A stretch of DNA of 64,000 nucleotides from a virus. The notes under the pieces are model-generated. The model saw nothing but the letters and a program-made list of their open reading frames with translations, made no database searches and was not told the DNA's origin. Numbering within the stretch: position 1 is the stretch's first letter; each line of letters begins with the position of its first letter. The DNA is taken from UHGV virus genome UHGV-1558314; one strand, given 5' to 3'. Below, one piece after another: positions 9,054 to 57,411 of the stretch. Position numbers and translations under genes: made by a program.

Positions 9054-10172
9054 TCATAGTAATGATGCTTGTAAAATGTCTATAATGTGCTCATCAGTTT
9101 CACATAAATCTGTATCACTTATTATGCAATATGCAGACAATTCAGTAGATGCATTAACATATGCAGTCATTGCAGCAGCTTTTGCTATGACTATATCATC
9201 ATGCAGCCATTTAGCAGGCTTTATTTCAACAACAATTTGCGCGTTATTAAAATGCACAACAAAATCCGCGATATATACATGTGTAGCACTATTGAACACA
9301 TACTTACACCTTGCAGTTTCTATTGAATAGTGTAACTTATTGCGTTCACAAAAGTGTATAAATTTGCGTTCATTGTTTGAACGAAACGACGCTTTAGCTG
9401 ATAAACAGTATTTTGCAGTTTGAACATAGCCTCTCATGCAGTTCATAAATGGCTGCAATGACATTATGTCTCGACCATTTAACAATGCTCTATGCTGTGC
9501 TTCTGCACGTCTACGTTTAACTTCTGGTTTAGCATCTGTAATTTTGCGAGTAGCACGTATACGTTCTTTAACACCAGGTCGAGCCATGATTGCTTTTGCA
9601 GAAGCACTTCGATGCGCATGTGTTTCAGGCCTTGCGTTAGCAATTAGCATCCCATGCAATTGAGTGTCTTTAACTTCTTGACGCTGCATTGCTATTCGAG
9701 TGCTCTGTGAAATCTTTTGCCTAACTGCAGGATTTGACATTGCACGTTTTGCGCGTTCTGACGCCTTTACACGTAGTTCTGTATTATTTGCATACATGGC
9801 ACGTTGAGTATTACTAATTTTGGTGCCAATGCGTTGTTTATATTCTGCATCTGCAAAGTATTTTGCATTTCTGCATGCATGACTGCAAACATCGCCGTCA
9901 CCATAGCCACGTGTTACACACCACCATGTTAATTGCTTGCCACATATAGAACATGTTGGGATATCTGAGTCATCTTTAATTTCACATAGATATTTGTCAT
10001 ACCATTGCTTCAATGAATAGCCTACAATAGGTTCAGCCTTTCTACTAAAATACGTGCTAAATATCCATGTATCAAGTTCAGGCACGTATAACTGAAACTT
10101 TGTACGTGTTATTTGCTTAACAAATTTGTCCCAATTCTTAGCGGCATTGCGCTTAGCGTCTTCAGCAGTCAT
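9054..10172 (-). CDS. Homing-endonuclease-like protein with basic repeats and C-terminal PD-(D/E)XK-like nuclease motif
   Basis: C-terminal IADFVVHFNNAQIVVEIKP fits D...E-x-K; central lysine/arginine-rich repeat region; CxxC...CxxxC cluster near N-terminus. Confidence 0.45.
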   Translation of the reverse strand: MTAEDAKRNAAKNWDKFVKQITRTKFQLYVPELDTWIFSTYFSRKAEPIVGYSLKQWYDKYLCEIKDDSDIPTCSICGKQLTWWCVTRGYGDGDVCSHACRNAKYFADAEYKQRIGTKISNTQRAMYANNTELRVKASERAKRAMSNPAVRQKISQSTRIAMQRQEVKDTQLHGMLIANARPETHAHRSASAKAIMARPGVKERIRATRKITDAKPEVKRRRAEAQHRALLNGRDIMSLQPFMNCMRGYVQTAKYCLSAKASFRSNNERKFIHFCERNKLHYSIETARCKYVFNSATHVYIADFVVHFNNAQIVVEIKPAKWLHDDIVIAKAAAMTAYVNASTELSAYCIISDTDLCETDEHIIDILQASLL

Positions 10173-10179
10173 TAGAGCA

Positions 10180-10926
10180 TCAAATCATTCTGTTATCACT
10201 AACTGCAAAGTTGATATTGTTGTCTTTCAGATATTGCATGTACATTGCAAATACTTGTTCTGCTGTCATTTTGTTGTACTTTGATGATGGTATGAAAATT
10301 GCTTTCGACCAGTTCTCATAAGTTATTTCAATCAAACCTGTAATGCGTTCTGGAATGTATTCACGAAATGCAAACGCGCCGCCATATGGCTGTACAATTG
10401 GCGCGATTTTGTGCCAATCAACAAACACAGGTGTTTGTTCTGTTCTATAAAGCTCGCCTTTATATTTTGATGCAAATGCTCTAAAAATTGCTTCTGCAAT
10501 CACAAAGCGAACTTCAAGTGGCACAAAGTGTAAGCTTAAGCCAACAGAACGCCATTCACCAGATTGTGTGTAAAAGCCGCCCATACAAAAACATAGGGGC
10601 GTTTCGTCCCACACTGCAAGCCAATCTTTTGTTTTAGGGTCACTGTATACAAACATATACAGCTTCCCAGGCTCCATGTACTTTCTGCGAATCTGCACAT
10701 CAGGATTCGTAGCATATGATTTGAACCATGCAGCAGCTTCTCTACCACCGTTTGGCATTTTGTACCACGGATTGCTTCGAATTTCTTTGCCAAGGTCATA
10801 TTGACCAGACTTTACCAAACGATTGAATAATCGTTGTGCTGCAGTCAATATTGAACGTCCTACTGACTTCGCTTTGTCAATAAAAGACGTTTTTGCTTGT
10901 GTATCTAATGAATTAAACTTTGCCAT
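10180..10926 (-). CDS. Hypothetical protein (248 aa)
   Basis: Intact ORF with ATG start; no recognisable motifs. Confidence 0.4.
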   Translation of the reverse strand: MAKFNSLDTQAKTSFIDKAKSVGRSILTAAQRLFNRLVKSGQYDLGKEIRSNPWYKMPNGGREAAAWFKSYATNPDVQIRRKYMEPGKLYMFVYSDPKTKDWLAVWDETPLCFCMGGFYTQSGEWRSVGLSLHFVPLEVRFVIAEAIFRAFASKYKGELYRTEQTPVFVDWHKIAPIVQPYGGAFAFREYIPERITGLIEITYENWSKAIFIPSSKYNKMTAEQVFAMYMQYLKDNNINFAVSDNRMI

Positions 10927-11073
10927 ATCATCATCGTTTCGGCTTTGTGACTACGTGCCAAGCATTGCATTCTTGACACCACACAGCTCTCTTTGTTTGT
11001 TTAGCATTTAGCACTGCTTGCTTAGCTACTTCTGCATTTGCAGCAATCTTATCATAGCATTTCTTTGTGCAAC

Positions 11074-11514
11074 TCATTTGAAGAATCGTTCAGTTATGAT
11101 TTTGAACTTAACATTTTGTTGTTTGCAATATGCAATTGCGGCATTCCACTTTGCGACATTTTTGCAATATGTTTCTTTCGCATAATTTGACGCAGACCGA
11201 CTTGGGCATTGCGTTTCATGCCATGGTTTCACCTCAACGACATATGTAGAATCTGCGGTTTTGAACAAAAAGTCGGGCCAATATGTGTGCGTTACGCCAT
11301 CAAGCTCATATGCAATTGGCAGTGTCTCAGATGACCAAGCAAGAACCTTTGAACTCATATCGCAAAGCTTGCAAAATCTGAATTCAAGTGAACTGCGGTA
11401 TATGATTGTCTTGTCTGTCGCGTCTTTGCCTTTGTACTTATCTGGGTTCATGCATCTGTAGTAGCCTTGCTTGTAGGGCCCTGATTTGTTTGGCTTAAGT
11501 TGCTTAATGTTCAT
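11074..11514 (-). CDS. Small PD-(D/E)XK-like nuclease family protein
   Basis: WPDFLFKTADSTYVVEVKP resembles the nuclease motif of 9054..10172; ATG at 11512-11514 chosen over GTG at 11523. Confidence 0.4.
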   Translation of the reverse strand: MNIKQLKPNKSGPYKQGYYRCMNPDKYKGKDATDKTIIYRSSLEFRFCKLCDMSSKVLAWSSETLPIAYELDGVTHTYWPDFLFKTADSTYVVEVKPWHETQCPSRSASNYAKETYCKNVAKWNAAIAYCKQQNVKFKIITERFFK

Positions 11515-11519
11515 TGCAG

Positions 11520-11765
11520 TCACTCATTGTCAGGTTTGACGTCTTTGCAGCCAAACTTATGCACAGCGTATTCAAGACCAAGTTGTTGCAATTCTGCAAA
11601 TGTCTTATCTTGCACATATTCTTTTGGAAATCTGCCATGCCATTTACCTATCATAGGCGCACATTCTGAACACATTCGAGGCATATTCTGTAAACGTGCA
11701 GACCAATAATAGCCAAGCGCAGTGTTTTCAATTGCGCCACACTTTTCACATACAAATAAAGGCAT
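11520..11765 (-). CDS. Zinc-ribbon protein (about 81 aa)
   Basis: CEKCG...CSEC Cys pairs; start set to internal ATG at 11763-11765 to avoid 65-nt overlap with upstream gene. Confidence 0.35.
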   Translation of the reverse strand: MPLFVCEKCGAIENTALGYYWSARLQNMPRMCSECAPMIGKWHGRFPKEYVQDKTFAELQQLGLEYAVHKFGCKDVKPDNE

Positions 11766-14480: not shown

Positions 14481-15736
14481 TAACTGTCATACGACCAGTG
14501 ACCACAGTCATACACTGGCACAAATCCAGTGTCAAGCATTTCTTGCTCATTAAAGTCATCATCAAGCAAGTGTTCACCCGATTTTGTATTAACCCAGTGC
14601 TTCTTAATTGTGCATTCATCAACCGCAAAGGGATTAAGTACATTGTCAGTACAGTCAATGAACGCATCATTCAAATGCGCTTCAATGATATGAAGCACAA
14701 TTTCTTGGTCGTGCCAATCAAATATCATGAGTGGCGTGTAGCCACATGCAATTGCAAGTTGTTGCTTCCACCAATGATAGTTTGGCTATTTTGCTTCTGC
14801 AGCATTTCGTTTAAAGCCATACACGCTATTATGAGTATGCGTCGGGTTAACGTCAATTAGCAGATTGCCATAATACAGGTCATATGACGTTATGCCAACA
14901 CCATGTTCAAACTCAAAATGCACACCAAGATGTTCTTCAATGTATGATTGCCACCATCTGTTTGGCGCAGATATGATTTGCCCATTTGCTTGCATACATT
15001 TATTTGTCATGCAAAACCATGGCACACCGTAACGTTCCATACAGGTTTTTGAAATTGCAGCAAGCCATTCATCTTTGTCTCTATGCGGCCATGCATAACC
15101 ATAACGCAGACGGCATGTTTGTTGAGCTTTAGCAACGATTGGCGCTAAACGTTCACCGTATATTTCACGTTTAGTTGCGATGGCTTTGCGTGGATTAGTC
15201 CATCCAGCATCACCCCATCGCTCAAGCTTCGTTTGCTGAGATTTTTCAACAATCAGTTCAAGATTCTCACCATATTTTTGACGACGAGTTTGCATTGCTG
15301 CAACATAATCTGTAATGCATCTATGGCCATACAAACGTTCTTTTGTCGCACATTGAACATCTACTGGACCTTGTGGATAGCCATAGCGTTCCATATTCGT
15401 TTGACGAATATGTGCTTTATCGCCATATGAACTGCCGTAGCGTGCAACTTTAGTGGCAATTGTTTGCTTGATGTTGCCTGCTTTAGAACCATAACGAGCT
15501 TCTTTAGTTGCTACGCATTTTTGTTTGACTTCTGCTCTGTTCCAATTATGCTCAACGCCATGTTTACGAAGATGGCCAATTTTCATGTTGTACACGTTTT
15601 TGATATGACCATGAGATGTCTTACGTGGTGCATATCGTACAAATGGTGTTTCTGCAAGCAACTTATCTCGTTCAGCTTCAAGCTCTTTAATTCGAGCTTC
15701 AAGAGCTTCACCAGTCAAAGGCTCTACATGTTTCAT
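14480..15736 (-). pseudogene. Homing-endonuclease-like repeat protein paralog interrupted by a single in-frame TAG
   Basis: ORFs 14786..15736 and 14480..14728 are in the same frame, separated by an in-frame TAG (plus-strand cta at 14786-14788). The combined product aligns along its length with the intact paralog 22976..24175 (shared N-terminal coiled coil, xRYG repeats, C-terminal FDW...YDCGH). Confidence 0.55.
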
Positions 15737-16437: not shown

Positions 16438-17727
16438 TTATTCTTTTGGCAGAAGTTCAGCAATGCGTGACTGCAATTGCTCTTTCTGCTTCAAATAGCT
16501 GTCAAGAATTTGCTGATGAGCTGCATAGCCCTCTGATGTTGGGTCCATACTCTGCATTGTGACTTGAACTGCAGCAATGTCTGATTCGACATTGTTGAGC
16601 ACTGTCTGATATGCGTCGACTTGTGCAGATGCACGAATTGCAGCTTTCATTGCAGTGTCATAATGTTCGCGCCACATTGACTTGATGCATTCGATTTCTG
16701 GTGTGCTTACAGAAATTGACTGCAATGCTGCAATGAGTGCAACAATGCCGCCGTATACTGTAATGACGCCAGACTGAGTGTCAAGCATGTTGAAGTGATT
16801 GCCATCAACTGCGTATACAATGATAGGCGCAGATTGCAGCTTGACTGAATTGTCGAGAACTGCAAGCTTTGTGAACTGCTGCGCTACTGTAATGACTGCA
16901 TTGCAAATTGCCTCTGCAGTCTCAAATTCGCCTGCAACTTGCATGCTAACTTGATTGAGTTGCATATAAGTCTTGACTTTCTCAGCGAATTCAAGTGCAG
17001 TCATAACTTGCGAATCAAGCTCAACTGCATCTTGGCCAACAATGCGAACATGGCCGACAATTGTGTCAGCAAAGAATGCTTCAGTCTTTGGACAATACTG
17101 AACAAGAGACATCGCATCCATCAATGCAACAGATTCTGCAGATGGCTCAGATGCTGTAGCATACAGCAAATTACCATCAGATACAGTGAACCACTTGCCA
17201 ACTACAGGCAGACCCATGATGTCGCCTTCAATAATTGCAAGCACATGCTGGCAATCACCTGTAGCAATGATGTGCTCAGGATTTGCTGCATAGTAGATGT
17301 CTTTTGCCTGCTTAATGAGCGACTTCACCTCAGGGTACATGTCATAATTGTCAAGCACGCCATCAACTGCAATTGCTCGAATGATTGGCTCATCAGTTGA
17401 TGCAACATCTACTGCATCTTCGATTGCTGACGCAGCCCTTTGCATATTTGCAGAGCCATCACTCATCAAATCTTCCATGACAAGTGACGCCTTGAAACCA
17501 AAGCCATCTGCGCCAATTGCTGCTTTCTGTGATTTTGCAAATGCGCGTACAGCAGCATCTTTGCTATTTGCAGCGCTTTCCAAAATCATTGCAGCTTTTC
17601 GAAGAGTCAGACCAGACTTTTTGATTTGTGCAAGTGACTCATTGACAAAGTTTGCACCGCCAAAAGTCAATGCTTTGATGCCTTTGATACCTTGAACAAA
17701 TGCATCAACGTTTACAGTATGTTTCAT
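16438..17727 (-). CDS. Hypothetical protein (429 aa), possibly structural
   Basis: Intact ORF adjacent to Ig-like domain protein; no recognisable motifs. Confidence 0.4.
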   Translation of the reverse strand: MKHTVNVDAFVQGIKGIKALTFGGANFVNESLAQIKKSGLTLRKAAMILESAANSKDAAVRAFAKSQKAAIGADGFGFKASLVMEDLMSDGSANMQRAASAIEDAVDVASTDEPIIRAIAVDGVLDNYDMYPEVKSLIKQAKDIYYAANPEHIIATGDCQHVLAIIEGDIMGLPVVGKWFTVSDGNLLYATASEPSAESVALMDAMSLVQYCPKTEAFFADTIVGHVRIVGQDAVELDSQVMTALEFAEKVKTYMQLNQVSMQVAGEFETAEAICNAVITVAQQFTKLAVLDNSVKLQSAPIIVYAVDGNHFNMLDTQSGVITVYGGIVALIAALQSISVSTPEIECIKSMWREHYDTAMKAAIRASAQVDAYQTVLNNVESDIAAVQVTMQSMDPTSEGYAAHQQILDSYLKQKEQLQSRIAELLPKE

Positions 17728-17734
17728 AGTCTAC

Positions 17735-19225
17735 TTATGCCTTTTTAGATTTACGCTTTGCAGCAACTACGACTTCTGCTACGATAGCTTCTACAGTAGC
17801 TTCAGTTACAACAGACTTGTCTGCAACTTTTACAAGAGCTGCATGCAACTTGTAGTTGCCGACTTTGCTGAAAATGCACTTGAATTCTGTTGTTGCATTG
17901 TATTCTGCAGGTACTGCAAAACCACTGTCAGGACCCCATACACCACTATCTTCGAATGTCCAAGGCTGACCCTGTGAATCTGTTGCAGTGAATGTCACAT
18001 GACCATCTTCAGGTGCTTCTACAATTTCATATTGCAGCTGAACGCCATCAACACCAGCTGTGCCAACTACTTCAGTTGCAAGTGTTGCATTGATTGCAAC
18101 TTCTGTTGCAGGCTGAATGCTTGCAGGGACATCTACAGAAATCTTGTATTCTGATACTTCAGGCTGAACTGGCTCAGCAACAACTACTGTAGACTCTGTT
18201 TCAACAACTACACTGTCATCAGCAACCTTGGCAAGAACTGCATGCAATTTGTATGTGCCTGCCTTGCTAAAGATTACAGTGAACTTTGTAGTTGCATTGT
18301 ATTCTGCTGGAATGTCAAAGCCTACTGCAGGACCCCATGTGCCATTGTCGACAAACGTGTATTCCTCGCCAGTTGTGTCAGTAGCCTTGAATGTCACATG
18401 GCCATCTTCAGGTGCTTCGTCTACACCATAGCGGAACTGAACTTTGTCAACACCGACATCACCAACAGTCTTCGTTTTGAATGTTGCATCAAGCTCAACT
18501 TCAGTGTTTTCGATGATTGTTTCAGGCGCAGACATTTCAAACTCATACTCAGATACTGTTTGCACAGCTTGTTCAAGTTTGATGTTCTTTGTCTTGTTTG
18601 AAATCATAGTTTCACGACCAGCCTGGCTAACGTAGCCCTCTTTAGACACTTCCCAGACAATTTCTTCGCCTGACAAAACAGTCAACGAATTGCGAACTTC
18701 ACCATTCATCTTGACAACTGCATCTGCAGGTTCTACATTGATTGTCAGTGTAGCTTTGCTGAGCTCAACAAGCTCCACTACTTGAATGACATCATGGTTT
18801 GTGAGCGTGATTGTGCCCTCCTGAGATTCATAGCCCTCTTTCGACACTTCCCACTTAATTGGAATGCCTGCAGGCACATTCTCAAGCATCTTTGTAGCCT
18901 CACCATTGATTTCTACGTGAGCATCTTCAGGCACAGGCTGAATTGTGATGCTGAACTTATCTTTGCCAGGTTCAGGGTCTGGTCCTGGTCCTGGGTCATC
19001 ACCAGTAATTGCAGGGATGATAGTGTTTTCGATGACTTTCTGAGCTTCTGCAGTTGTGCCATAGAATTTGAGCGTTTTCTTGGCTTCTTCTACAGACATT
19101 TTCTCAAGATTGTCTGCAAGATATGTCAGACCAGTGACTGCAGCAATTTTCTGCCGCATTTCTGGGCTAATGACTACACCAGTAGATTTGACTACTGGAG
19201 CAGCTTGTTTTTGTTTCTTTGCCAT
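17735..19225 (-). CDS. Protein with tandem Ig-like repeat domains; possible capsid decoration (Hoc-like) protein
   Basis: Two ~85-aa internal repeats (PEDGHVTFKATDTTGEEYTF...YKLHAVLAKVADDSVV and PEDGHVTFTATDSQGQPWTF...YKLHAALVKVADKSVV). Start set to internal ATG (MAKKQKQ); the track start would lie inside the upstream terminator. Confidence 0.45.
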   Translation of the reverse strand: MAKKQKQAAPVVKSTGVVISPEMRQKIAAVTGLTYLADNLEKMSVEEAKKTLKFYGTTAEAQKVIENTIIPAITGDDPGPGPDPEPGKDKFSITIQPVPEDAHVEINGEATKMLENVPAGIPIKWEVSKEGYESQEGTITLTNHDVIQVVELVELSKATLTINVEPADAVVKMNGEVRNSLTVLSGEEIVWEVSKEGYVSQAGRETMISNKTKNIKLEQAVQTVSEYEFEMSAPETIIENTEVELDATFKTKTVGDVGVDKVQFRYGVDEAPEDGHVTFKATDTTGEEYTFVDNGTWGPAVGFDIPAEYNATTKFTVIFSKAGTYKLHAVLAKVADDSVVVETESTVVVAEPVQPEVSEYKISVDVPASIQPATEVAINATLATEVVGTAGVDGVQLQYEIVEAPEDGHVTFTATDSQGQPWTFEDSGVWGPDSGFAVPAEYNATTEFKCIFSKVGNYKLHAALVKVADKSVVTEATVEAIVAEVVVAAKRKSKKA

Positions 19226-19316
19226 AAGATATTGTGAATTTGGTTGTTTATTCTTAACAAAATATGTACATACAGATGCAACAGATGATATGTCAGATAC
19301 ACAAAGCTGCATAAAA

Positions 19317-19354
19317 TGACCAGACTTGCAAATAAATTTAAGCAAGTCTGGTCA
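19317..19354 (-). terminator. Putative intrinsic terminator after DNA polymerase C-terminal gene
   Basis: 13-bp stem tgaccagacttgc/gcaagtctggtca with AT-rich loop; T-run follows on minus strand. Confidence 0.45.
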
Positions 19355-19369
19355 TCAGTTTTGATTGCA

Positions 19370-20662
19370 CTACAACAATGACGGCACTCGTTGAGTTTCA
19401 AGTGGGTCGCTGACATTGATGCCTGTGTATGCAACAAGTCGTTGTATTGGGCCAAGTACGAGTTTTTCGAACATGAGTCGTTTGTTCATTGGCGGCACAT
19501 CTGGCATATACTTCGGTGTCGGCATTTCGCCTGGTGCAAAGCCAAATGCATCGCAATATTGACGAGAGCCAATTGGGATATTTGACAAATCTGACTTTGC
19601 TCTGTCAACAAAGTAGTAGAACACTCGACCGCCTTCAATCAATGGGTATCGTGTTTCCAATCCATGAGCTTTTACAAGACGATTATGCCAACAACATGCC
19701 CTGTACTGAGGCAGTACACCTTTTGCTAACTGCCATTCGCCATCATAGCTTAACACATAGTCATGATACTTGTTTGCATTGACATATGCACAAAGTTTTT
19801 CCAAGTCTTGCTCAGCTTCAAAGCGTTTCCATAATTTCTGTATGAGCTTTGGATATGTCGCAGAAGTCAATTCACCTCTGAACATTTTTTTGAATGCATA
19901 ATCAAGCATTTGCCTAACAAGCATTGATGAGCCTGTTTGAATAAGTTCGATGCCCTTACCTTGAATATGCTCAGTAGGGTCTTCAAATACTCGACCATCT
20001 ACATATATTTGAGACTTCAAATACTTTTTCTTTTGGGCAAATAATGCAGTATCAGAAATCGTCTCAAGGTCGAACATTAGCACAGAATCTCCATGACGCT
20101 TTGCAAGGTCATTTGCATATGACCTATTGAACAGTTCTTCCATACGATATTTGAATATCGCAAGAATCAAGTCATACCAATTTTTGCCTGTGTAACCAAT
20201 TGACTTAACTGTCGGCTCAAAGTGAATGTACAAAGAGTCTGTGTCAATATACAGCACTTTGTCTTCATAGGGTTCTTGCTTTGGCGACACAGACAAATCA
20301 AAATTGCCTTTCAATTTGGGGTCATTGCGCAGCTTTTCATGCAATTCATAATCACACCACCATTTATTGTTGAGATAGTCATTTGCTACTCGTTCGCCAA
20401 AGTGAATGAAGTTACGCCCTTCTGCAGTAATTGATTCTGCAACTGCCATATTGAAGAAGTGATAGAATCGATTACTTGTCGCACCATAAATACTGTTCCT
20501 TAGTGTTTTGAACGTCACCTGCAATGACGCATGTTTAAGCGACTCTTGTATTGCAAAGCCACGTAATTCAAATAGACGCTCAGTAGACAACTGACTCAAA
20601 TCGCCAGTTAAATCTACTCCATCTATTTCAATTTTTGACATGTCTATCTGAGCTTCTGCCAT
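19370..20662 (-). CDS. Family-B DNA polymerase, C-terminal fragment (motifs B and C)
   Basis: KTLRNSIYG (motif B, Kx3NSxYG) and YIDTDSLY (motif C, YxDTDS). ATG start, TAG stop. Confidence 0.8.
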   Translation of the reverse strand: MAEAQIDMSKIEIDGVDLTGDLSQLSTERLFELRGFAIQESLKHASLQVTFKTLRNSIYGATSNRFYHFFNMAVAESITAEGRNFIHFGERVANDYLNNKWWCDYELHEKLRNDPKLKGNFDLSVSPKQEPYEDKVLYIDTDSLYIHFEPTVKSIGYTGKNWYDLILAIFKYRMEELFNRSYANDLAKRHGDSVLMFDLETISDTALFAQKKKYLKSQIYVDGRVFEDPTEHIQGKGIELIQTGSSMLVRQMLDYAFKKMFRGELTSATYPKLIQKLWKRFEAEQDLEKLCAYVNANKYHDYVLSYDGEWQLAKGVLPQYRACCWHNRLVKAHGLETRYPLIEGGRVFYYFVDRAKSDLSNIPIGSRQYCDAFGFAPGEMPTPKYMPDVPPMNKRLMFEKLVLGPIQRLVAYTGINVSDPLETQRVPSLL

Positions 20663-20684
20663 AAGGTATCTTATTTAATTATTA

Positions 20685-20724
20685 TTGTACAACACACATT
20701 GCAATTTTGCAATATGTGTGTTAA
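20685..20724 (-). promoter_or_regulatory. Promoter box plus adjacent palindrome upstream of polymerase C-terminal gene
   Basis: ttgtacaaca at 20685-20694 followed by near-palindrome acacacattgcaa..ttgcaatatgtgtgtt. Confidence 0.35.
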
Positions 20725-20758
20725 ACAAAAATGCAGCAGCAGAACATCTGCTGCTGCA
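20724..20758 (-). terminator. Putative intrinsic terminator after 20802..21629
   Basis: Stem gcagcagcag/ctgctgctgc (20733-20757), loop aacat; A-run on plus strand upstream gives T-run on minus. Confidence 0.5.
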
Positions 20759-20801
20759 TCGGCAGGTATCTTCACATGTATTTGAGTTGATTACGATGTG
20801 A

Positions 20802-21629
20802 TTAGAATGGCAGGTCACCATCGTCACCTGCAGCGCCAAATTCAGCTGCAATGTCATATACCAACGTCATTGCGATTCGCAAATCGCGCTTCTTAGACTT
20901 CAGGCGCATGATATCATGACCAGAATTGTTTGTGATGACTGAACATTCAAACTCTTCATTGCCATCAATAAATGACAACATTGATTTGTGAATTGTGATT
21001 GGCGATAAATCAGATGGGTAATTTGCATCAATCACATATTCAAAGTTGTTGTTCTTGGCAATTAGTCCTCGTTCAGTCGTACGAATCTCAATGCCGGGCA
21101 ATTCCTTATCACCAGTATTCAATGAGCCATACGATGACATGATGCCAAAGTGATTTGACGTCAAATCGAGTTTTCTTAGATTTGTTGTGCTGTCAAACAA
21201 CATTGACATATCATTGTCAGACAGCTCAAAGTAGCCAAGTGATGGCATTGAACAAACCTGATTGATTTTGAGCTGATTGTTTGAGATTACAATGAGCTCT
21301 GCAATTGTATCTGTGCCAATTTGTTTGACATAGATTTCAATCATTGCAGATGAGCCAAATGCAGCAAGTACTCGATTGTTAAACTGTGTGCCGTTGTAAA
21401 TGAGCGCCTTGACTGTGACATCTTTGAGCGTCGACTCATAATGCTCACAAATATCAAGAACATTGAGCGTCTGTGATTTTACAAAGCTGCTGTTGCCAGC
21501 ATCAGTTCTGATTCGCTGGTCATTAAGTGAAAAGCTAAGCTTGCCATCGCACTTTAATGATGATGCAAACAATGCTCGCAGCATATCAATGTTTGCATTG
21601 CGTAACGTAATTTTGTTCAAAGTTTCCAT
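20802..21629 (-). CDS. Hypothetical protein (275 aa); weak resemblance to a sliding-clamp-like processivity factor
   Basis: Sits between polymerase fragments; acidic C-terminus ending DDGDLPF. Function not supported by motifs. Confidence 0.25.
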   Translation of the reverse strand: METLNKITLRNANIDMLRALFASSLKCDGKLSFSLNDQRIRTDAGNSSFVKSQTLNVLDICEHYESTLKDVTVKALIYNGTQFNNRVLAAFGSSAMIEIYVKQIGTDTIAELIVISNNQLKINQVCSMPSLGYFELSDNDMSMLFDSTTNLRKLDLTSNHFGIMSSYGSLNTGDKELPGIEIRTTERGLIAKNNNFEYVIDANYPSDLSPITIHKSMLSFIDGNEEFECSVITNNSGHDIMRLKSKKRDLRIAMTLVYDIAAEFGAAGDDGDLPF

Positions 21630-21697
21630 CTTGTATCTATGTTGTTGATTTTCAATTTAATATATTGAACAACATTTGTTGACATTTTGCAACATTG

Positions 21698-22072
21698 TCA
21701 TCGATTGTCGCCTGACCCATGCAGTACGCCTCGTAATTTTCGAGACTGTAGTTTCTGAATGTTAAGCTGACAAATGTCAGTTAAGCTGTAGCCCAAATCA
21801 TGTGCAAGAGTTGCAGCATACCACATGACATCGCTAAGCTCTTTTGCGATTTCCTTGCGAATGTCTTCATTGTCAAAATCACCATTCTTGTCTCGAATGA
21901 CTTTTTTGACTTTGTCTGCAACTTCGCCTGCTTCACCCGTCAAGCCAAGCGTTGGATAGACAATTGCAGCTGATTTAGGATACACTGCGCTATCAAGTGC
22001 AGCAGTCTGATATTCATCAATGGTTGAAATACAAGTGTGGTCAATTACACCATGTTCATCTCGTTTAAGCAT
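21698..22072 (-). CDS. MazG-like nucleoside triphosphate pyrophosphohydrolase
   Basis: All-alpha NTP-PPase signature (LTGEAGEVADKVKK ... ELSDVMWYAATLAHDLG). Confidence 0.55.
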   Translation of the reverse strand: MLKRDEHGVIDHTCISTIDEYQTAALDSAVYPKSAAIVYPTLGLTGEAGEVADKVKKVIRDKNGDFDNEDIRKEIAKELSDVMWYAATLAHDLGYSLTDICQLNIQKLQSRKLRGVLHGSGDNR

Positions 22073-22073
22073 A

Positions 22074-22565
22074 TCATTTACGTTTTTGTTTGACTCTTAA
22101 TCGTTTTTGCATAAATGCTCTTGTAGCTTCACCAAAAGCCATCTCGTCTCGTTCGCCACCACAAAGCTTTGCAAGCTTATTGAATGTGTCTTGGTCAATC
22201 ATTGTGTACGTTGAGTTGTTGACCACATGCAATGCAAACTGAATCAGCGGTGCGCCTGGCTGCAAGCAGAACGGCTCTTTGCCCGCATTGTACACTGCAA
22301 GATGAATCTCGCCATGATAGTCTGAATCTACAAACTCACTTGTTTTGATGATAAGATGATTTCGTGAAATGCCCGACTTATTGTAGGCAATCAATGCATG
22401 ACAGGCAGGCACAAGTGCTTTGATGCCAGATGGAATTGCAATGCCCTCACCAGGTTGCAGCATTGTTTGCACAAAATCATTGGGTATGCAAAAGTCCCAT
22501 GCGCCAGATTCTGCTGTTGACTTAAAAGGACTTTCTACATTTCTGCATTTTGCAAAGAATAACAT
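22074..22565 (-). CDS. dUTPase / dCTP deaminase family protein
   Basis: VDSDYHGEIHLAVYNAG resembles trimeric dUTPase motif GxIDxDYRGE. Confidence 0.5.
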   Translation of the reverse strand: MLFFAKCRNVESPFKSTAESGAWDFCIPNDFVQTMLQPGEGIAIPSGIKALVPACHALIAYNKSGISRNHLIIKTSEFVDSDYHGEIHLAVYNAGKEPFCLQPGAPLIQFALHVVNNSTYTMIDQDTFNKLAKLCGGERDEMAFGEATRAFMQKRLRVKQKRK

Positions 22566-22588
22566 ATTAAGTATGTGTTTGTATGTTG

Positions 22589-22933
22589 TTAGTACATTTC
22601 TCGTTTAACAAGAGCTTTGCGTTTTGAGCGTAACCCTGCCCTATTACGTAATTCTACTGACCAATCACGAATCATTTGCCATGCAATCCCACCACGTTGA
22701 ATACCACCGTGCTTGAACATTTCATTGCAAATACCTTGAATAAACACCGCATCAGACTTTGTCAATGCGTCAACAATTTGACCATGGTTGTCTTCTGTCT
22801 TGACATCATTACAGAGCTTAAGTTCATCTACTGAAAGTTCGCCAAGCAGCTCATAGTAGTATATGAGAGCTTTGCGTGCGGCAATTGCTTTTCTTGAATT
22901 GCCAGAATAAGACAAAGTTACATGTTTGCTCAT
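22589..22933 (-). CDS. Hypothetical protein (114 aa)
   Basis: Track start at 22939 is TTG; ATG at 22931-22933 used. Confidence 0.35.
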   Translation of the reverse strand: MSKHVTLSYSGNSRKAIAARKALIYYYELLGELSVDELKLCNDVKTEDNHGQIVDALTKSDAVFIQGICNEMFKHGGIQRGGIAWQMIRDWSVELRNRAGLRSKRKALVKREMY

Positions 22934-22949
22934 ATTCAATTATTGTTAT

Positions 22950-22972
22950 TATATGTTGATATTGTACAACAT
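22950..22972 (-). promoter_or_regulatory. Recurrent promoter box (coding-strand ATGTTGTACAATATCAACATATAAT)
   Basis: Plus-strand tatatgttgatattgtacaacat; TATAAT-like element ~10 nt downstream of the box on the minus strand. Confidence 0.45.
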
Positions 22973-22975
22973 GTG

Positions 22976-24175
22976 TTAACTTTTTGCATGACCACAATCA
23001 TACACCGCAACATAGCCAGCATCAATCATCTCTTGCTCATCTTGTCCGCAATCTTCAATATGTTCTTTTGTCTTCAAATGACACCAGTGTTTGCGAATTG
23101 TTGACTTGTCATCTGACAATTGCGGATTGAGTGCGAAGTCAGTTGAGTCTACTGGTTCACCTGCAAGATGCTTTCTAATGACATCAATGACAACATCAAA
23201 TGGCATCCAGTCAAACACTGTAATGCAAGTGTAGCTGTGTTTGATAGCAAGTTGTGTTTTGTTAAAATGGTTGTCATATGGTCGTTGCCAATTATGATTT
23301 GCATTGAACACAATATTTGCAAAACTACGCGTGCTATTATGAGAAATAGTTGGGTTAAGTTCAATTAGCAACTTATGCGATTTGCAAACAATGTCATATG
23401 ACAATGACGTGTTCTCAAATGTAAATTCTTGCTCAAAATGCACATCAAGGTTATCAAATAGCATGTTAAGCCTTGTGCATATTTTTGTATTGTGTGCAGA
23501 CTTTGCTTTAGATTTTGCTCTGCATTGAGGCAATTGGCATGGCCACACTACACCATGACGTGACAATGTTGTTGCACGAATTGCGTCAAGATTCGTTGAT
23601 GGATTGCCATATCGAGCTATTCGAGTTTGCCTTGCTTTGTCTATATTGCCTGGGCCTGCATTGCCCCATCGCTGCAACTTTGTTTGTCGAGCTTGTTCAT
23701 GATTGCTGTAATATGGGTCTCCATATCGTTCAAGCTTTGTTTGCTTTAACTTACTCATGTCGCCAAGCCCATTGCCATACTTAGCACGCTTTGTTTCTAT
23801 GCCTTTCTTTAGATTGCCTCGTTTGTTGCCATATTTTGCAATGTTGTGTGCATTACGTTTTTCAATGTCACCAAACCCATTGCCATATCGTGCAAATTTT
23901 GTTGCTTGCGCTTTTTCAAAATTGACTGCTAATGTGCCATAACGAGCATACTTAGTTGCTTTGCCCTTATCAACGACTTCTTTACGATGCAATGCAGCTT
24001 CAACACCATATTTTCGCAAATTTGTAATTTTTGCATTGTATCGTCGTCTAATTGTTGCATGAGTGTTGTTACGAGACCCTGTTCTGACATATTCAGTTGC
24101 AGCAAGTTCAGCATCACGTAACTGCTCAAGTTCTGCAATTCGTTGTTCAAGTTCAGCGCCTACAAGTGGTTTCAT
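22976..24175 (-). CDS. Homing-endonuclease-like protein with ~18-aa basic tandem repeats (intact paralog)
   Basis: About eight repeats of K-x-x-A-T-K-x-A-R-Y-G-N type; N-terminal coiled coil; C-terminal YDIVCKSHKLLIELNP resembles a PD-(D/E)XK-like core with N in place of K. Located between the two DNA polymerase fragments. Confidence 0.45.
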   Translation of the reverse strand: MKPLVGAELEQRIAELEQLRDAELAATEYVRTGSRNNTHATIRRRYNAKITNLRKYGVEAALHRKEVVDKGKATKYARYGTLAVNFEKAQATKFARYGNGFGDIEKRNAHNIAKYGNKRGNLKKGIETKRAKYGNGLGDMSKLKQTKLERYGDPYYSNHEQARQTKLQRWGNAGPGNIDKARQTRIARYGNPSTNLDAIRATTLSRHGVVWPCQLPQCRAKSKAKSAHNTKICTRLNMLFDNLDVHFEQEFTFENTSLSYDIVCKSHKLLIELNPTISHNSTRSFANIVFNANHNWQRPYDNHFNKTQLAIKHSYTCITVFDWMPFDVVIDVIRKHLAGEPVDSTDFALNPQLSDDKSTIRKHWCHLKTKEHIEDCGQDEQEMIDAGYVAVYDCGHAKS

Positions 24176-24183
24176 GTGTTGTT

Positions 24184-25689
24184 TTACAATTTGATTGCGC
24201 CTCTACGAGCAAGCTCTTCTTCAATCAATCGAACATGATTGTTAGAATACCAGAACTGAATTTTTTTGTGATAATTACGCTTGTCTCCAAGTTCTTCCTG
24301 TACTGCTTTGTACATGCTTTTTTCATGATTGTCATACAAGCAGTCATTAACGGACACAAAGTACTCTGGCAATGACTTGTAATGCGCAATTTCATCAGGA
24401 TTTGTCAGACGTCTGATAAAGTTATCCGGTGATACATTGCATGATTTCATTGAACTTGGATAGAGTGAATTTGCATCAACACAAACAACTTTATGAGCCC
24501 AATGGTTAAATGGTTGCTTCACAAAGCCACCTTCAAATGCATGCACAACATTTTCTGGACCGCCTTGAGCACATACGACTTTGCCACCATATTTGTTGTA
24601 CAAATATGTCATCATGACGCCCTCAGATTGCTTAACTGGGCCTTGACAGTGGTTCATATCAATGTTTGACACATTTGACAAGCCCATCACATTTGATATC
24701 AAGTCAGTTTTTGCAGCAATCATCGCATTGACCATCGTATCGACAGCATTATATGCAATGAACGTGCATGGATGATACAAATACAGCTCTTTAAGTGTAC
24801 AATCATAGGGCAGCTTACCTACACCGAACATACGATGTGCAATATAGTCAAGTCGCAATGACTCTTTTTGCCACACTGAATAGTCGTATGTGTCCATGAG
24901 CTGCATGTAGTCATCAATGTACTTGTGATATGGCATACCATTGCCCCAGACAGTTCTGCCAACTGGAGATGCCAATGCTAAATCAATATTGTGCATTGCG
25001 CATCGATTTTTGACATAGATGTTGTCGAAGCCATTGATGTTCCAGCCTGTCAATGCAGGAATGTTTTTGAAGAGCTTAGTCACCCAAAAATGCAACAATT
25101 CATGCTCATTTGCATGTTGAAAGATTTTGACAGTTGGATGTTCTTTCAAATACGCAGCAAAGCAATGTTGACCCATGTACTCTTGAATGATGCCATTGAC
25201 AAACTCAAATGCATCATCCAGTGTTGGGTTTTGTTTGCCACAGCTTTTGCGCAAATCATCATCATTCAACAAGTCAACAGTAGTCTGAATGACACAATTG
25301 CATTGTTCATCGCATGTACTTATTGCATTAATGGGCATTTCAGCTTTGTCAGGCTTTGGAAAGCCATTGCCAATTTCAGTCTCAATATCGTAAAAGTATA
25401 ACTTTGGTCTACGATAAGCAAACAATTCAACTTTGTCAGCTTCAGGCAATTCAAATAAGAATTGCAGCAAGTCAAATTGATTGAATCGTTTTGCTGTGAC
25501 TCGAGTCACAGGCAATTTGCGCCAATCTTGAATATCTGCATATTGCGGCTCTACATGGTCTGATATTTGCCATACTGGAAATTGATATGGCTGTTCACAG
25601 ACTGGGTATGTTTTGATGTCAATGCCACCTTGCTCATTAACGTATGAAACTTCAATGCCATGTGACAAATATGCTACGTCGACAATCAT
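24184..25689 (-). CDS. Family-B DNA polymerase, N-terminal fragment (3'-5' exonuclease motifs and motif A)
   Basis: Exo I FYDIETE, Exo II NINGFDNIY, Exo III YNAVD, motif A VDANSLYPS. Track start 25725 is TTG; first ATG 25687-25689 used. Confidence 0.8.
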   Translation of the reverse strand: MIVDVAYLSHGIEVSYVNEQGGIDIKTYPVCEQPYQFPVWQISDHVEPQYADIQDWRKLPVTRVTAKRFNQFDLLQFLFELPEADKVELFAYRRPKLYFYDIETEIGNGFPKPDKAEMPINAISTCDEQCNCVIQTTVDLLNDDDLRKSCGKQNPTLDDAFEFVNGIIQEYMGQHCFAAYLKEHPTVKIFQHANEHELLHFWVTKLFKNIPALTGWNINGFDNIYVKNRCAMHNIDLALASPVGRTVWGNGMPYHKYIDDYMQLMDTYDYSVWQKESLRLDYIAHRMFGVGKLPYDCTLKELYLYHPCTFIAYNAVDTMVNAMIAAKTDLISNVMGLSNVSNIDMNHCQGPVKQSEGVMMTYLYNKYGGKVVCAQGGPENVVHAFEGGFVKQPFNHWAHKVVCVDANSLYPSSMKSCNVSPDNFIRRLTNPDEIAHYKSLPEYFVSVNDCLYDNHEKSMYKAVQEELGDKRNYHKKIQFWYSNNHVRLIEEELARRGAIKL

Positions 25690-25700
25690 ATTATTATCTT

Positions 25701-26111
25701 TTAGAATAGAGATATTGTACAACAATTTGATTCAGGTTGCCATTCTACAATATGCGCATCAAAGTGTTTGTTAAGCCAATGTGCAAGTATGTGTCTATGA
25801 CAAAATGCAGATGGTCTGCACCAACATAACAATACAATGTCTCGTTCGCCTGCAAAAATCTTTATGCGATGCAGCATCAAACTTATCTGTGACAATGCAG
25901 CGTCAAGTTTTGCTGCATATTGCTCTGCATATTGTGCATTGTCAAGCAAGCCTGCTTTATGCAAACGAACAAGTGACATGTAATCAGGCATGACGTCAGT
26001 CCATGTAAAATCTGCTATGAAGCCCTTAGGCTTTGTTGCAGACACTTGAACAAGAAATGCGTTATCAGGCAGATGCCTGCATGCATAATATGAAGTCAAG
26101 ATTCTTGTCAT
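25701..26111 (-). CDS. Small protein with C-x-x-x-x-C-H-R motif (DUF488-like?)
   Basis: LLCWCRPSAFCHRHILAHWL; family assignment from memory only. Confidence 0.3.
   Translation of the reverse strand: MTRILTSYYACRHLPDNAFLVQVSATKPKGFIADFTWTDVMPDYMSLVRLHKAGLLDNAQYAEQYAAKLDAALSQISLMLHRIKIFAGERDIVLLCWCRPSAFCHRHILAHWLNKHFDAHIVEWQPESNCCTISLF
25711..25726 (-). promoter_or_regulatory. Promoter box upstream of polymerase N-terminal gene
   Basis: attgtacaaca at 25714-25724, embedded in the 3' end of the upstream gene. Confidence 0.4.
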
Positions 26112-53418: not shown

Positions 53419-53766
53419 TTATTTTGCAAGCATTTTGCTGATTGCATCTATCACAGTTTCACTGAGCAAGTAGTAGACAACGCTTATCAGCAATGATATC
53501 AGTACTGCAGCTGTGATAAATTGCAACGCATTCACAATTGCACGCACAAATGTTATCTGTGTGTTGTATGCAAGCACTATGCAGCATAGCACAATAATGA
53601 CACACCAGACTACAATTGCATATGCAGGCATCAATGAATTTGTCCATATGCAGTACAATACAGTAGTTAGCATCAAAAATGCTATTGCTCTGATGACTGA
53701 CACAATGATGTCTATGTAGAGCTTCATTACACGTAAATGAACTCTTGGCTTATGCGGTTTCATCAT
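53419..53766 (-). CDS. Small multi-pass membrane protein
   Basis: Start at ATG 53764-53766 overlapping upstream stop (ATGA); three hydrophobic helices. Confidence 0.35.
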   Translation of the reverse strand: MMKPHKPRVHLRVMKLYIDIIVSVIRAIAFLMLTTVLYCIWTNSLMPAYAIVVWCVIIVLCCIVLAYNTQITFVRAIVNALQFITAAVLISLLISVVYYLLSETVIDAISKMLAK

Positions 53767-57195: not shown

Positions 57196-57411
57196 TCATT
57201 TTGCACAGTCTGATGCAATTAAATCTTTGTCAAAGCATTCATCTATAATGTCTTCAATAAGATACGCTTCGACATTGTTAAGCTTCAAGATATCTACGAG
57301 TTTTGCTTTGATATCGCAAGCTAATGCAGATTCGACTGTATGCAATATGACTGATGATACGACATGCTTGTCTGTCATCATTTGTAATTGCTGTGGTGTT
57401 ACTCTACTCAT
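57196..57411 (-). CDS. Small acidic hypothetical protein (71 aa)
   Basis: ATG start overlaps Tmk-like stop (ATGA). Confidence 0.3.
   Translation of the reverse strand: MSRVTPQQLQMMTDKHVVSSVILHTVESALACDIKAKLVDILKLNNVEAYLIEDIIDECFDKDLIASDCAK

Follow-up and report, generated by a model that had tools for sequence, protein, structure and literature searches.

A phage that replaces all the cytosine in its DNA has to remove dCTP. To our knowledge T4 gp56 is the only well-studied enzyme that serves cytosine replacement in this way, and we know of no recognisable gp56 in most metagenomic phages that carry cytosine-type thymidylate synthase (TS) homologs. The question addressed here is whether one of two adjacent genes, lying between the DNA polymerase halves of a virus genome of at least 175 kb, takes the part of gp56, and if so which. 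The analysis covered a 64-kb stretch of that genome (the window), and all features given below with coordinates are encoded on its minus strand.

The question presupposes a dCMP hydroxymethylase, which a first-pass annotation of this DNA had attributed to the phage. A TS homolog of 293 residues (47048–47929; Pfam PF00303, 85.8 bits) carries the signature of a 5-hydroxymethyl-dCMP synthase like T4 gp42. Its motifs KDMPC and RSNDVIWGFCND display L143D, the catalytic Cys, D169 and N177D, the same pattern as the SDFMC and RSNDVVFGFRND motifs of gp42, and the diagnostic residues are invariant in a 26-sequence alignment that includes gp42. An Asp at the position of ThyA Asn 177 denotes a cytosine substrate and an Asp or Glu at Leu 143 gives access to water, and Asn in place of Asp 169 marks the 5-hydroxy-dCMP synthases (PMC13326640). 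With Asp at both of the first two positions and Asp 169 retained, every diagnostic residue points the same way, and the window phage is predicted to encode a T4-gp42-type dCMP hydroxymethylase, in agreement with the first-pass annotation. The surroundings also match the T4 pathway: the window contains a 241-residue protein of the dCMP deaminase family (60717–61442; Pfam dCMP_cyt_deam_1, 74.8 bits), a canonical thymidylate synthase of 352 residues with Asn 177 (42764–43822; motif RSCDMCLGVPIN; PF00303, 256 bits; TIGR03284, 240.6 bits, over the cutoff) and glycosyltransferase-like genes. A gp56 homolog was sought in the window with tblastn and phmmer and none was found; tblastn of T4 gp56 against the 64 kb gave chance matches only (E of at least 0.66), and no other NTPase appeared among the ORFs scanned in the window. 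The scan took in 64 kb of at least 175 kb, and the remainder may contain a gene like that for gp56.

The locus is bounded by the N-terminal half of a family-B DNA polymerase, with the exonuclease domain and motif A (24184–25725; DNA_pol_B_exo1, 47 bits; phrog_2062, 1e-59), and by the C-terminal half (19370–20662; Pfam DNA_pol_B, 57 bits; phrog_1918, 1.7e-48). When the whole polymerase region was compared by megablast with 50,697 phage records, nothing matched. The window phage appears to be without a close sequenced relative, the nearest being Chryseobacterium phages MA9V-1 and MA9V-2, with 36% identity between the N-terminal half and the split 'DNA polymerase II' of MA9V-2. The two genes in question, for proteins of 163 residues (22074–22565) and 124 residues (21698–22072), are separated by a single base (TGA t ATG). 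They lie exactly where the first-pass annotation had placed two genes of dNTP-hydrolysing families, flanked by the polymerase halves, and the matches to those families (dUTPase PF00692 and MazG PF03819) are far above chance. The annotation had further treated the region as a single polymerase-splitting cassette, and comparison with related contigs speaks against this. The gene for the 163-residue dUTPase-like protein and that for a 275-residue protein directly upstream of the polymerase C-terminal half (20802–21629) are conserved residents, whereas a 399-residue DUF7487 / homing-endonuclease-like gene (22976–24175; Pfam DUF7487, 36 bits; phrog_3339 'homing endonuclease') is precisely missing from the otherwise near-identical contig L011 and is a mobile insertion with presence/absence polymorphism. 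A 116-residue ORF between the homing-endonuclease-like and dUTPase-like genes (22589–22939) gave no family match in searches of Pfam, PHROG and NCBIfam; it is 100% identical in L011 and was undetected in the two sister phages L003 and L007.

The 275-residue protein has orthologs at the corresponding place of L003 and L007 (43–44% identity) and more distant ones in MA9V-2, L040 and L079 (20–28%). Searches of Pfam, PHROG, NCBIfam and the PDB, including a profile search of the PDB, gave zero matches. The idea that it is a sliding clamp was discarded, as hhalign against T4 gp45 returned a probability of 0.5% and the PDB profile search was empty; a single-sequence AF2 model (pLDDT 31) was too low in confidence for use.

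The 124-residue protein is a single-domain, all-α NTP pyrophosphohydrolase of the MazG family, scoring 36.1 bits against Pfam MazG (PF03819; cutoff 22) and E=1.4e-35 against phrog_229 'MazG-like pyrophosphatase'. It resembles the phage MazG proteins of phrog_229 in having one MazG domain of about 120 residues and the acidic EXXE...EXXD residues, which the translation, in alignment with PDB 2q73, shows in GEAGE (E47, E50) and KELSD (E78, D81). Annotated MazG proteins of roseophages, a pelagiphage and actinophages are 50–57% identical to it, and its closest homologs often lie beside ThyX, PolA or RecA genes; to the MazG proteins of T4-like cyanophages the identity is 31–40% only. Family membership makes this protein a suspect for the cytosine-excluding dCTPase, that is, for the true gp56 analogue beside a dUTPase-like enzyme that would handle dUTP only. 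Of the two window proteins it alone belongs to the superfamily of gp56, since reviews unite gp56 (Pfam dUTPase_2) and MazG in one all-α superfamily (PMC12524310), and in structure the RB69 and DLP3 dCTPases are similar to dCTP pyrophosphatases of the MazG-like kind (PMC13326640). In addition, a proposal by Iyer et al. has MazG-like enzymes of jumbo phages degrading unmodified NTPs (PMC7824862), and the MazG of cyanophage S-PM2 reaches its greatest Vmax with dGTP and dCTP (PMC6850273). The S-PM2 enzyme is nevertheless broad in specificity, has its Km in the millimolar range and prefers dGTP (PMC6850273), and because the window MazG is only 31–40% identical to the S-PM2 group, the dGTP/dCTP preference cannot be transferred to it with confidence and we gave these kinetics little weight as a proxy. 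Any similarity between the window MazG and gp56 was undetectable by tblastn.

The distribution of the gene also speaks against such a role. In both sister phages, L003 and L007 (57–59% identity), the stretch between the polymerase halves still contains the dUTPase-like gene, and MazG is missing from it. It is missing too from the 39 kb of the L007/L178 contig around the dUTPase-like gene and a hydroxymethylase, the latter being a 45% identical ortholog with D177 and D143. (This ortholog was not among the best 120 matches of the hydroxymethylase search; it was found by walking from the helicase ortholog, and an apparent absence from the sister phage was dismissed.) Among 160 loci around hydroxymethylase genes or genes of the K/H subfamily of dUTPase-like proteins described below, MazG is confined to the window's own strain. 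We therefore consider it quite unlikely that MazG is the dCTPase. The 124-residue protein appears to be a generic phage NTP pyrophosphohydrolase, inserted in the window lineage only, and most likely acts as an accessory enzyme in broad house-cleaning or dNTP recycling. The dUTPase-like and MazG genes are two separate genes with differing histories, and the 'nucleotide-sanitation pair' of the first-pass annotation dissolves, the dUTPase-like gene being found in the sister phages and at the other loci with no MazG beside it.

The 163-residue protein scores 40.2 bits against Pfam dUTPase (PF00692; cutoff 22) and E=1.7e-9 against the dUTPases of phrog_135, and E. coli Dut is the PDB entry that it matches best by sequence. 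An AF2 monomer model had a moderate pLDDT of only 69; the best 50 PDB matches to this model in Foldseek were all trimeric dUTPases (probability 1.00, TM 0.59–0.78). The protein is thus predicted to adopt the all-β jelly-roll subunit fold of the trimeric dUTPases, and it has its motifs in the same order as the homotrimeric enzymes of E. coli and phage T5. T4 gp56, on the other hand, is a dimeric all-α protein matching Pfam PF08761 (dUTPase_2), which neither the 163- nor the 124-residue protein matches, so the alignment with dimeric dUTPases that had been suggested is inapplicable to the dUTPase-family gene, and its role as a dCTPase on an unrelated fold is that of a candidate only. Within the dUTPase family the protein is divergent, as it stays below half of the cutoffs of the NCBIfam dut equivalogs TIGR00576 (48.1 bits against 102.55) and NF001862 (46.8 against 103). 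Pfam DCD (PF22769) is matched over part of its length with 29 bits, just over the 27-bit domain cutoff. A dCTP deaminase was considered and set aside, since the score against NCBIfam TIGR02274 (dCTP_deam) was 27.6 bits with a cutoff of 92.8 and the best PDB deaminase matches had E values of only 0.01–0.07; the residue at what we take to be the position of the catalytic Glu of the deaminases is Ala or Cys. The dCTP deaminases and DCD-DUT enzymes do have the trimeric fold in common with the 163-residue protein, which means that this fold is able to bind dCTP.

Alignment with E. coli Dut shows which parts of the active site are retained. Motif 3, VDSDYHGE, keeps the catalytic Asp and the deoxyribose-selecting Tyr, and D80, D82, Y83 and G85 are invariant across 13–15 homologs. 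The phosphate-binding Arg residues of motifs 2 and 4 that typify canonical dUTPases are both replaced: motif 2 is NKSG, with Lys for Arg and the Ser-Gly kept, and motif 4 is PGAPLIQF, with Pro for Arg and the Gln kept. In E. coli numbering, canonical dUTPases have R71 in 80/80, R116 in 78/80 and N84 in 77/80 sequences. A second group, here called K/H, has K71, K116 and H98 each in 79/79 and lacks N84, which is also deleted in the window protein; the seven members of the clade to which the window protein belongs all have K71 and, at position 116, Pro. The invariance of His 98 is partly by construction, as this residue formed part of one search pattern; K71, K116 and N70 lay outside the patterns. 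On dUTPase structures the K/H changes map to the phosphate site and to the hairpin that binds the nucleobase (PMC4827122). K/H is a sharply bounded subfamily of the dUTPase fold, with Lys in motif 2, His in the hairpin, and Lys in motif 4 that is exchanged for Pro in the window clade. This clade differs further in a degenerate motif 5 (ERDEMAFGEAT in the window protein; R-x4-(A/K)-F-G-E-(A/M)-T in the clade), which has lost the Ser and two Gly but still shows the Arg, the Phe and a single Gly, whereas the wider subfamily retains a canonical motif 5, and in a basic helical C-terminal tail that is not seen in other subfamily members.

The motif-4 Pro and the degenerate motif 5 might lower the activity of the window clade. 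Together with the basic tail they could even indicate that the protein is catalytically weakened and serves mainly in a non-enzymatic role, for instance a regulatory or polymerase-associated one, in which case MazG would be generic cargo and neither gene would be linked to DNA modification. Some staphylococcal phage dUTPases are described as having a non-enzymatic regulatory role, and many large viral contigs show close linkage of the dUTPase-like gene to polymerase genes. Such linkage is equally expected of an enzyme that edits the nucleotide pool, however, and among members of the window clade, with 55–77% identity to one another, there is no variation in the catalytic Asp, in the Tyr, Ser or Gln, or in the Arg and Phe of motif 5, which indicates selection on the active site. 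A non-enzymatic role is for these reasons very unlikely.

An active enzyme could still be a lineage-specific but strict dUTPase, keeping uracil out of DNA and supplying dUMP; its place beside cytosine-hydroxymethylase genes would then reflect the inheritance of nucleotide-metabolism genes as a module, and dCTP exclusion would be the work of another enzyme or be incomplete. Every search assigns the protein to the dUTPase family, and it preserves the Asp of catalysis, the Tyr that discriminates ribose, the Gln of motif 4, and Arg and Phe of motif 5. Its hairpin loop is shortened and in this is like the loop of the strict dUTPases of eukaryotes (PMC4827122). A dUTPase would also be useful where a dCMP deaminase adjoins it, as the deaminase raises dUMP and dUTP. 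Side chains do not decide the matter: the uracil in dUTPases is recognised by main-chain atoms (PMC12524310), so the side-chain differences are no proof of a switch to cytosine, and a reading of base specificity from them was rejected as decisive, on this ground and on that of the eukaryote-like hairpin loop.

The genomic company of the K/H genes is less easily explained by strict dUTPase activity. IMG/VR was scanned with the K/H subfamily and neighbors were counted within 10 kb at 80 loci, many of which are interrelated. A TS-family gene was present at 65 of the 80, and at 60 it was a TS homolog with Asp 177; the median gap between the dUTPase-like and TS genes was 1.5 kb, and all 63 pairs that were measured were co-directional. 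In a control scan of 80 loci of canonical dUTPases, 7 had a TS gene and none an Asp177 TS homolog (60/80 against 0/80, Fisher p = 1e-26). When the loci were dereplicated at 70% identity, the Asp177 neighbor remained in 10 of 16 K/H clusters as compared with 0 of 60 canonical clusters. The reverse scan, starting from 80 hydroxymethylase homolog loci, found a dUTPase-fold gene within 10 kb at 21 and none at the remaining 59; K/H proteins made up 18 of the 19 neighbors that could be classified, and one was canonical. The order dUTPase-like, dCMP deaminase, hydroxymethylase was seen at 27 of the 80 K/H loci and mirrors the 56/cd/42 enzyme set of T4. In Bacteroides phage BF486P2 the K/H homolog lies between two Asp177 TS homologs and adjoins an AAA_28 kinase-like gene (34.8 bits), and a scan of 12 neighbor proteins from 14.6 to 25 kb revealed no other NTPase. 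The K/H subfamily travels with cytosine-specific TS homologs, unlike the canonical dUTPases of the control set, and with family-B polymerase genes. This association could mirror co-inheritance of a nucleotide-metabolism module and not shared chemistry, and a related Lys-type homolog of 34% identity in Croceibacter phage P2559Y has no TS gene for company, as a strict dUTPase might. Strict dUTPase activity leaves unexplained, though, the Asp177 neighbors that canonical dUTPases lack, the near-exclusive occurrence of the K/H type beside hydroxymethylases and the invariant loss of both phosphate-binding Arg residues with gain of the hairpin His, and it leaves K/H phages with no identified dCTPase in the regions examined. 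We regard it as rather unlikely.

We favor the reading that the 163-residue enzyme fills the role of T4 gp56 with another fold, MazG being accessory cargo, and give it a probability of about 0.45. The suggestion in the first-pass annotation that one of the two genes encodes a gp56-like dCTPase is reasonable, because both belong to dNTP-pyrophosphatase families and the phage has a hydroxymethylase; as the candidate, the comparative evidence favors the dUTPase-fold gene over MazG. As we infer it, the enzyme would edit the nucleotide pool for a hydroxymethylcytosine pathway by hydrolysing dCTP, and probably dUTP too, to the monophosphate and pyrophosphate. The hairpin pocket of dUTPases shuts out 5-substituted pyrimidines, and a tight pocket of this kind may spare 5-hydroxymethyl-dCTP. 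The dCTP would be depleted and the dCMP formed would be fed to the hydroxymethylase and to the dCMP deaminase. In T4 this task falls to gp56, which hydrolyses dCTP, dCDP, dUTP and dUDP and leaves hm-dCTP intact. More tentatively, the K/H subfamily as a whole may be an unrecognised class of viral dCTP pyrophosphatases, a non-orthologous replacement of gp56 that spares 5-hydroxymethyl-dCTP. In the part of the literature that we covered there was no precedent for a dCTPase of the trimeric fold or for a link between dUTPases and hydroxymethylases, and with coverage incomplete, novelty is unproven.

If this reading is correct, the K/H subfamily would explain how cytosine is excluded in numerous uncultured phages, among them large ones of the Bacteroidota type whose polymerase is split, and a systematic annotation as 'dUTPase' would be corrected. 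The motifs N-K-S-G and G-E-I-H and the motif-4 Lys would provide a sequence marker of cytosine replacement in phages, predicting cytosine-modified genomes and bearing on their sequencing, on restriction and CRISPR sensitivity, and on phage engineering. The subfamily would also be an example of a strictly uracil-specific fold retuned to cytosine. Should the protein be an ordinary dUTPase, the finding shrinks to routine nucleotide-metabolism genes and a mobile MazG.

Three further genes of the window may belong to the modification pathway. A 190-residue P-loop protein (57408–57980) with a weak AAA_28-like match (18.8 bits, below the Pfam cutoff) is a possible dNMP kinase of the pathway. Two glycosyltransferase-like proteins are likewise weakly matched: one of 518 residues (58026–59582; Exostosin_GT47, 25.5 bits, below cutoff) and one of 412 residues (53763–55001; Exostosin_GT47 and Glyco_trans_1_2, both below cutoff), the latter possibly transferring a sugar to hydroxymethylcytosine. 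For the 412-residue protein, a GT47-like gene is also syntenic in contigs L178 and L180.

Two adjacent genes of nucleotide-hydrolase families lie between the halves of the family-B polymerase (polN, 24184–25725; polC, 19370–20662), as the first-pass annotation had proposed, and both open reading frames were found at exactly the positions it gave, with family matches above cutoff. The first encodes a 163-aa dUTPase-fold protein (22074–22565, minus strand) that matches Pfam dUTPase PF00692 with 40.2 bits and, more weakly, a dCTP-deaminase-like domain (29 bits, Pfam). It falls below the cutoffs of the NCBI dut equivalog (48 bits, cutoff 102.55) and the NCBI dCTP deaminase (27.6 bits, cutoff 92.8). 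In PDB, E. coli Dut matches its sequence best, and Foldseek with its AF2 model (pLDDT 69) returned homotrimeric dUTPases only. The comparison with dimeric dUTPases suggested for this gene is therefore misplaced, as the protein is of the trimeric all-β type, unlike T4 gp56, which falls in Pfam PF08761, the dimeric all-α type. The second gene encodes a 124-aa MazG-family protein (21698–22072, minus strand; Pfam PF03819, 36.1 bits, cutoff 22; phrog_229, E=1.4e-35) with intact acidic metal-binding residues (GEAGE...KELSD). The two frames abut, a single base separating the stop codon of the former from the ATG of the latter.

No close relative of the window was found among GenBank phages. The nearest, Chryseobacterium phages MA9V-1/2 (polymerase identity 36%), also have a split polymerase but differ in the intervening genes. 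In the window the order is polN, a DUF7487 homing-endonuclease-like gene, a 116-aa gene, the dUTPase-like gene, MazG, a 275-aa gene and polC. The dUTPase-like protein is 57–59% identical in two metagenomic sister phages, L007, with the order polN, 93 aa, dUTPase-like, 279 aa and polC, and L003, with polN, TnsA-like, 117 aa, 178 aa, dUTPase-like, 171 aa (no family), 274 aa and polC. Both sisters thus keep the dUTPase-like gene, while among the sister loci compared MazG is confined to the window strain and to L011 (IMGVR_UViG_3300045988_152288), a near-identical IMG/VR contig whose neighbouring genes are 95–100% identical at the protein level. The 399-aa DUF7487/homing-endonuclease-like gene (22976–24175, between polN and the 116-aa frame) is precisely missing from L011, where at 9600–9640 the 116-aa gene comes straight after the polymerase stop codon; the split polymerase locus is cleanly polymorphic for the presence of this mobile, free-standing endonuclease gene. 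From these orders and this absence it follows that the intervening stretch does not form a single cassette, nor do the two flagged genes stay together as a pair, contrary to the first-pass annotation. Of the genes between the polymerase halves, the dUTPase-like one and the ~275-aa one are residents.

The phage carries two thymidylate-synthase (TS) family genes in the window, a canonical ThyA (42764–43822; 256 bits; Asn177) and a divergent homolog (47048–47929; 85.8 bits) whose best PDB matches are the CMP hydroxymethylase MilA and T4 dCMP hydroxymethylase. At the diagnostic positions of this family N177D denotes a cytosine substrate, L143D/E hydroxymethylation and D169N the 5-hydroxy-dCMP synthases (Lee et al. 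2026, PMC13326640). The motifs of the divergent homolog, KDMPC and RSNDVIWGFCND, follow the same pattern as SDFMC and RSNDVVFGFRND in T4 gp42, and the diagnostic residues are invariant across 26 homologs, gp42 included. A dCMP-deaminase gene lies at 60717–61442, and weak matches nearby point to two glycosyltransferase-like genes and one P-loop kinase-like gene. With the gp42 residue pattern and these accompanying genes, sequence evidence gives good support to the premise that the phage has a dCMP hydroxymethylase. The L007 phage, reached by walking from the helicase ortholog, has at the syntenic position a hydroxymethylase ortholog (45% identity; RSNDVVTGFCID, KDMPC), ThyA and a GT47-like gene; no MazG was found in 39 kb of its contig. 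The window ThyA is long (352 aa) and TS profiles match it in two or three separate stretches, which implies an insertion of ~20–30 residues after the catalytic Cys region. Its orthologs in L178, a further stretch of the L007 phage, and in viral contig L180 (375 and 362 aa) share that insertion.

The dUTPase-like protein belongs to a divergent group with Lys for the motif-2 Arg and an invariant His in the base-binding hairpin (the K/H subfamily). We aligned the window clade (n=7), IMG/VR relatives (n=79) and canonical viral dUTPases (n=80), using E. coli Dut numbering. All three sets retain the catalytic Asp, the Tyr, Ser in motif 2, Gln in motif 4, and Arg and Phe in motif 5. Position 70 is Pro in 73/80 canonical sequences and Asn in all relatives (79/79) and the whole window clade (7/7); position 71 of motif 2 is Arg in 80/80, Lys in 79/79 and Lys in 7/7, respectively. 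Asn 84, present in 77/80 canonical sequences, is deleted in both other sets. Gly 87 (80/80) is replaced by Cys (50) or Glu (18) in the relatives and by Glu in 7/7 of the window clade, and the canonically variable hairpin position 98 is His in 79/79 and 7/7. Position 116 of motif 4 is Arg in 78/80 canonical sequences, Lys in 79/79 relatives and Pro in 7/7 of the window clade. Motif 5 is canonical in both larger sets and degenerate in the window clade, R-x4-(A/K)FGE(A/M)T followed by a basic helical tail; this and Pro 116 may reduce activity. His98 and Gly87 belonged to the respective search patterns; Lys71, Lys116, Asn70, Arg71, Arg116 and Asn84 did not. Nucleobase-binding residues have been placed at both ends of the motif-3 hairpin, and motif 5 credited with diphosphate discrimination and high catalytic power (Szabo et al., PMC4827122), which locates the changes of the K/H subfamily in the substrate site.

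Genomic context ties this subfamily to cytosine-type TS homologs. Within 10 kb on either side of the K/H gene, 65 of 80 IMG/VR loci contain a TS-family gene, with Asp177 in 60, mostly together with Asp143; the gap has a median of 1.5 kb, the strand is the same in 63/63 measured pairs, and a dCMP-deaminase gene lies directly between the two in 27 loci. Among 80 control loci found with canonical dUTPases, seven have a TS gene and none Asp177 (Fisher p = 1e-26, for K/H loci that are phylogenetically related to one another); after dereplication at 70% identity the figures are 10/16 clusters versus 0/60. A reverse scan seeded by hydroxymethylase homologs, sharing one contig with the forward scan and so largely independent, gave Asp169/Asp177 in 76/80 loci. 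A dUTPase-fold neighbour occurred in 21 of the 80 loci (18 K/H, two partial or unclassified, one canonical), a gp56-like gene in one and MazG in none. Both flagged proteins fall in known superfamilies, and phage dCTPases are a classical idea; this sharply delimited subfamily and its near-exclusive, bidirectional linkage appear to be undescribed in the literature searched, the coverage of which is incomplete.

At its dCTP/dCMP node T4 depends on a dCTPase-dUTPase (gp56), a dCMP deaminase (cd) and a hydroxymethylase (gp42). The trio that recurs here, in which a dUTPase-like gene joins those for deaminase and hydroxymethylase, matches this set except that the first enzyme differs. In trimeric dUTPases the pocket leaves no room for 5-substituted pyrimidines such as thymine (PMC4531489), a property that any dCTPase sparing hm-dCTP must have. 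From the trio and this pocket we infer that the K/H enzyme acts on dCTP: it would hydrolyse dCTP, and probably dUTP, to the monophosphate, which would feed hydroxymethylase and deaminase, and dCTP would be depleted beside the replicative polymerase. The substrate assignment is an inference, since uracil is read by main-chain atoms (PMC12524310) and specificity is not deducible from sequence. Against it, a related Lys-type homolog occurs in Croceibacter phage P2559Y, which has no TS gene, and most hydroxymethylase loci have no nearby dUTPase-fold gene; the window spans 64 kb and the genome at least 175 kb. The MazG-family protein could instead be the dCTPase, given its membership of the same all-α superfamily as gp56 (PMC12524310) and the suggestion of Iyer et al. 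(PMC7824862) that MazG-like enzymes of jumbo phages may break down unmodified NTPs, but its scattered occurrence weakens it as a candidate relative to the dUTPase-fold gene. Its closest homologs (50–57%) come from roseophages, a pelagiphage and actinophages, and several of them adjoin ThyX, PolA or RecA genes; MazGs of T4-like cyanophages are only 31–40% identical to it, and the one characterised cyanophage enzyme, from S-PM2, is broad, preferring dGTP (Km 0.14 mM) and dCTP (Km 1.16 mM), while Km for the remaining substrates is in the millimolar range (PMC6850273). The first-pass interpretation is partly supported: the general idea that one of the two genes is a candidate dCTPase holds, and the dUTPase-fold gene is the better candidate.

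In Bacteroides phage BF486P2 (L092) a K/H homolog is flanked by two different TS homologs with Asp177, of which one has Arg or Lys in place of the Asp143-type residues seen elsewhere; an AAA_28 kinase-like gene and a 611-aa carbamoyltransferase adjoin the K/H gene (cluster at 17255–23283). No other NTPase was found among 12 neighbouring proteins scanned (14.6–25 kb). This looks like a cytosine hypermodification cluster, directly testable because the gut phage is cultured. In seven other loci (L013, L017, L018, L020, L022, L023 and L024) the Asp177 domain forms the N-terminal ~220 aa of a ~600-aa frame (e.g. L017:10818–12644) with a ~390-aa C-terminal extension; siblings L012 and L019 stop after the TS domain. 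Five control loci carry long TS homologs of 348–388 aa (L148:7740–8849, L152:12807–13916, L157:13595–14758, L166:13032–14195 and L117:3606–4649), all with KD(T/V)PC and four with KDTPC together with RSNDLIWGFSAVN, a loop one residue longer with Asn at its end. These may be uracil-type (dUMP) hydroxymethylases, mirroring the K/H–Asp177 linkage.

The polymerase is another recurrent neighbour: of 80 loci, 20 have a family-B polymerase gene no more than 10 kb from the K/H gene, and in 15 of 16 mapped loci it starts ~200 bp or less downstream, some having hydroxymethylase, dUTPase-like gene and polymerase in that order. Many large viral contigs (L028, L029, L031, L033, L036, L038, L040, L054, L062, L079, L083 and L085, mostly near position 10000) have the K/H gene adjoining, or running into, the start of a ~470-aa frame for the polymerase N-half, which argues that the split polymerase with its dUTPase-like neighbour is old and widespread; the window clade differs from those contigs in gene order only. 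The ~275-aa gene is always directly upstream of polC (window 20802–21629, L003:11112–11936, L007:10572–11411), also in distant relatives at 20–28% identity (L001:11711–12655, L040:16238–16999, L079:9944–10690), and in L040 and L079 it and polC follow 4–5 kb after the N-half. Its product had no match in Pfam, PHROG, NCBIfam or PDB and could be a partner of the split polymerase that has gone unrecognised; hhalign was negative for a T4 gp45-type clamp.

At the position of MazG, L003 has an unrelated 171-aa frame without a Pfam match (10518–11033), and the slot between the dUTPase-like and 275-aa genes seems to be a gene-insertion hotspot. Free-standing endonuclease genes seem abundant in this genome: the window also has another DUF7487 gene (316 aa, 42 bits) as well as two TnsA-like/endonuclease-I-like genes (together at 14786–15736, 9054–10172 and 11074–11523). 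L011 has a 405-aa paralog of the 399-aa gene (41% identical) ~6.7 kb downstream of its dUTPase-like gene. A DUF488-N3a family gene in the window (25701–26111, 38 bits) overlaps the TTG start of polN by 25 bases.
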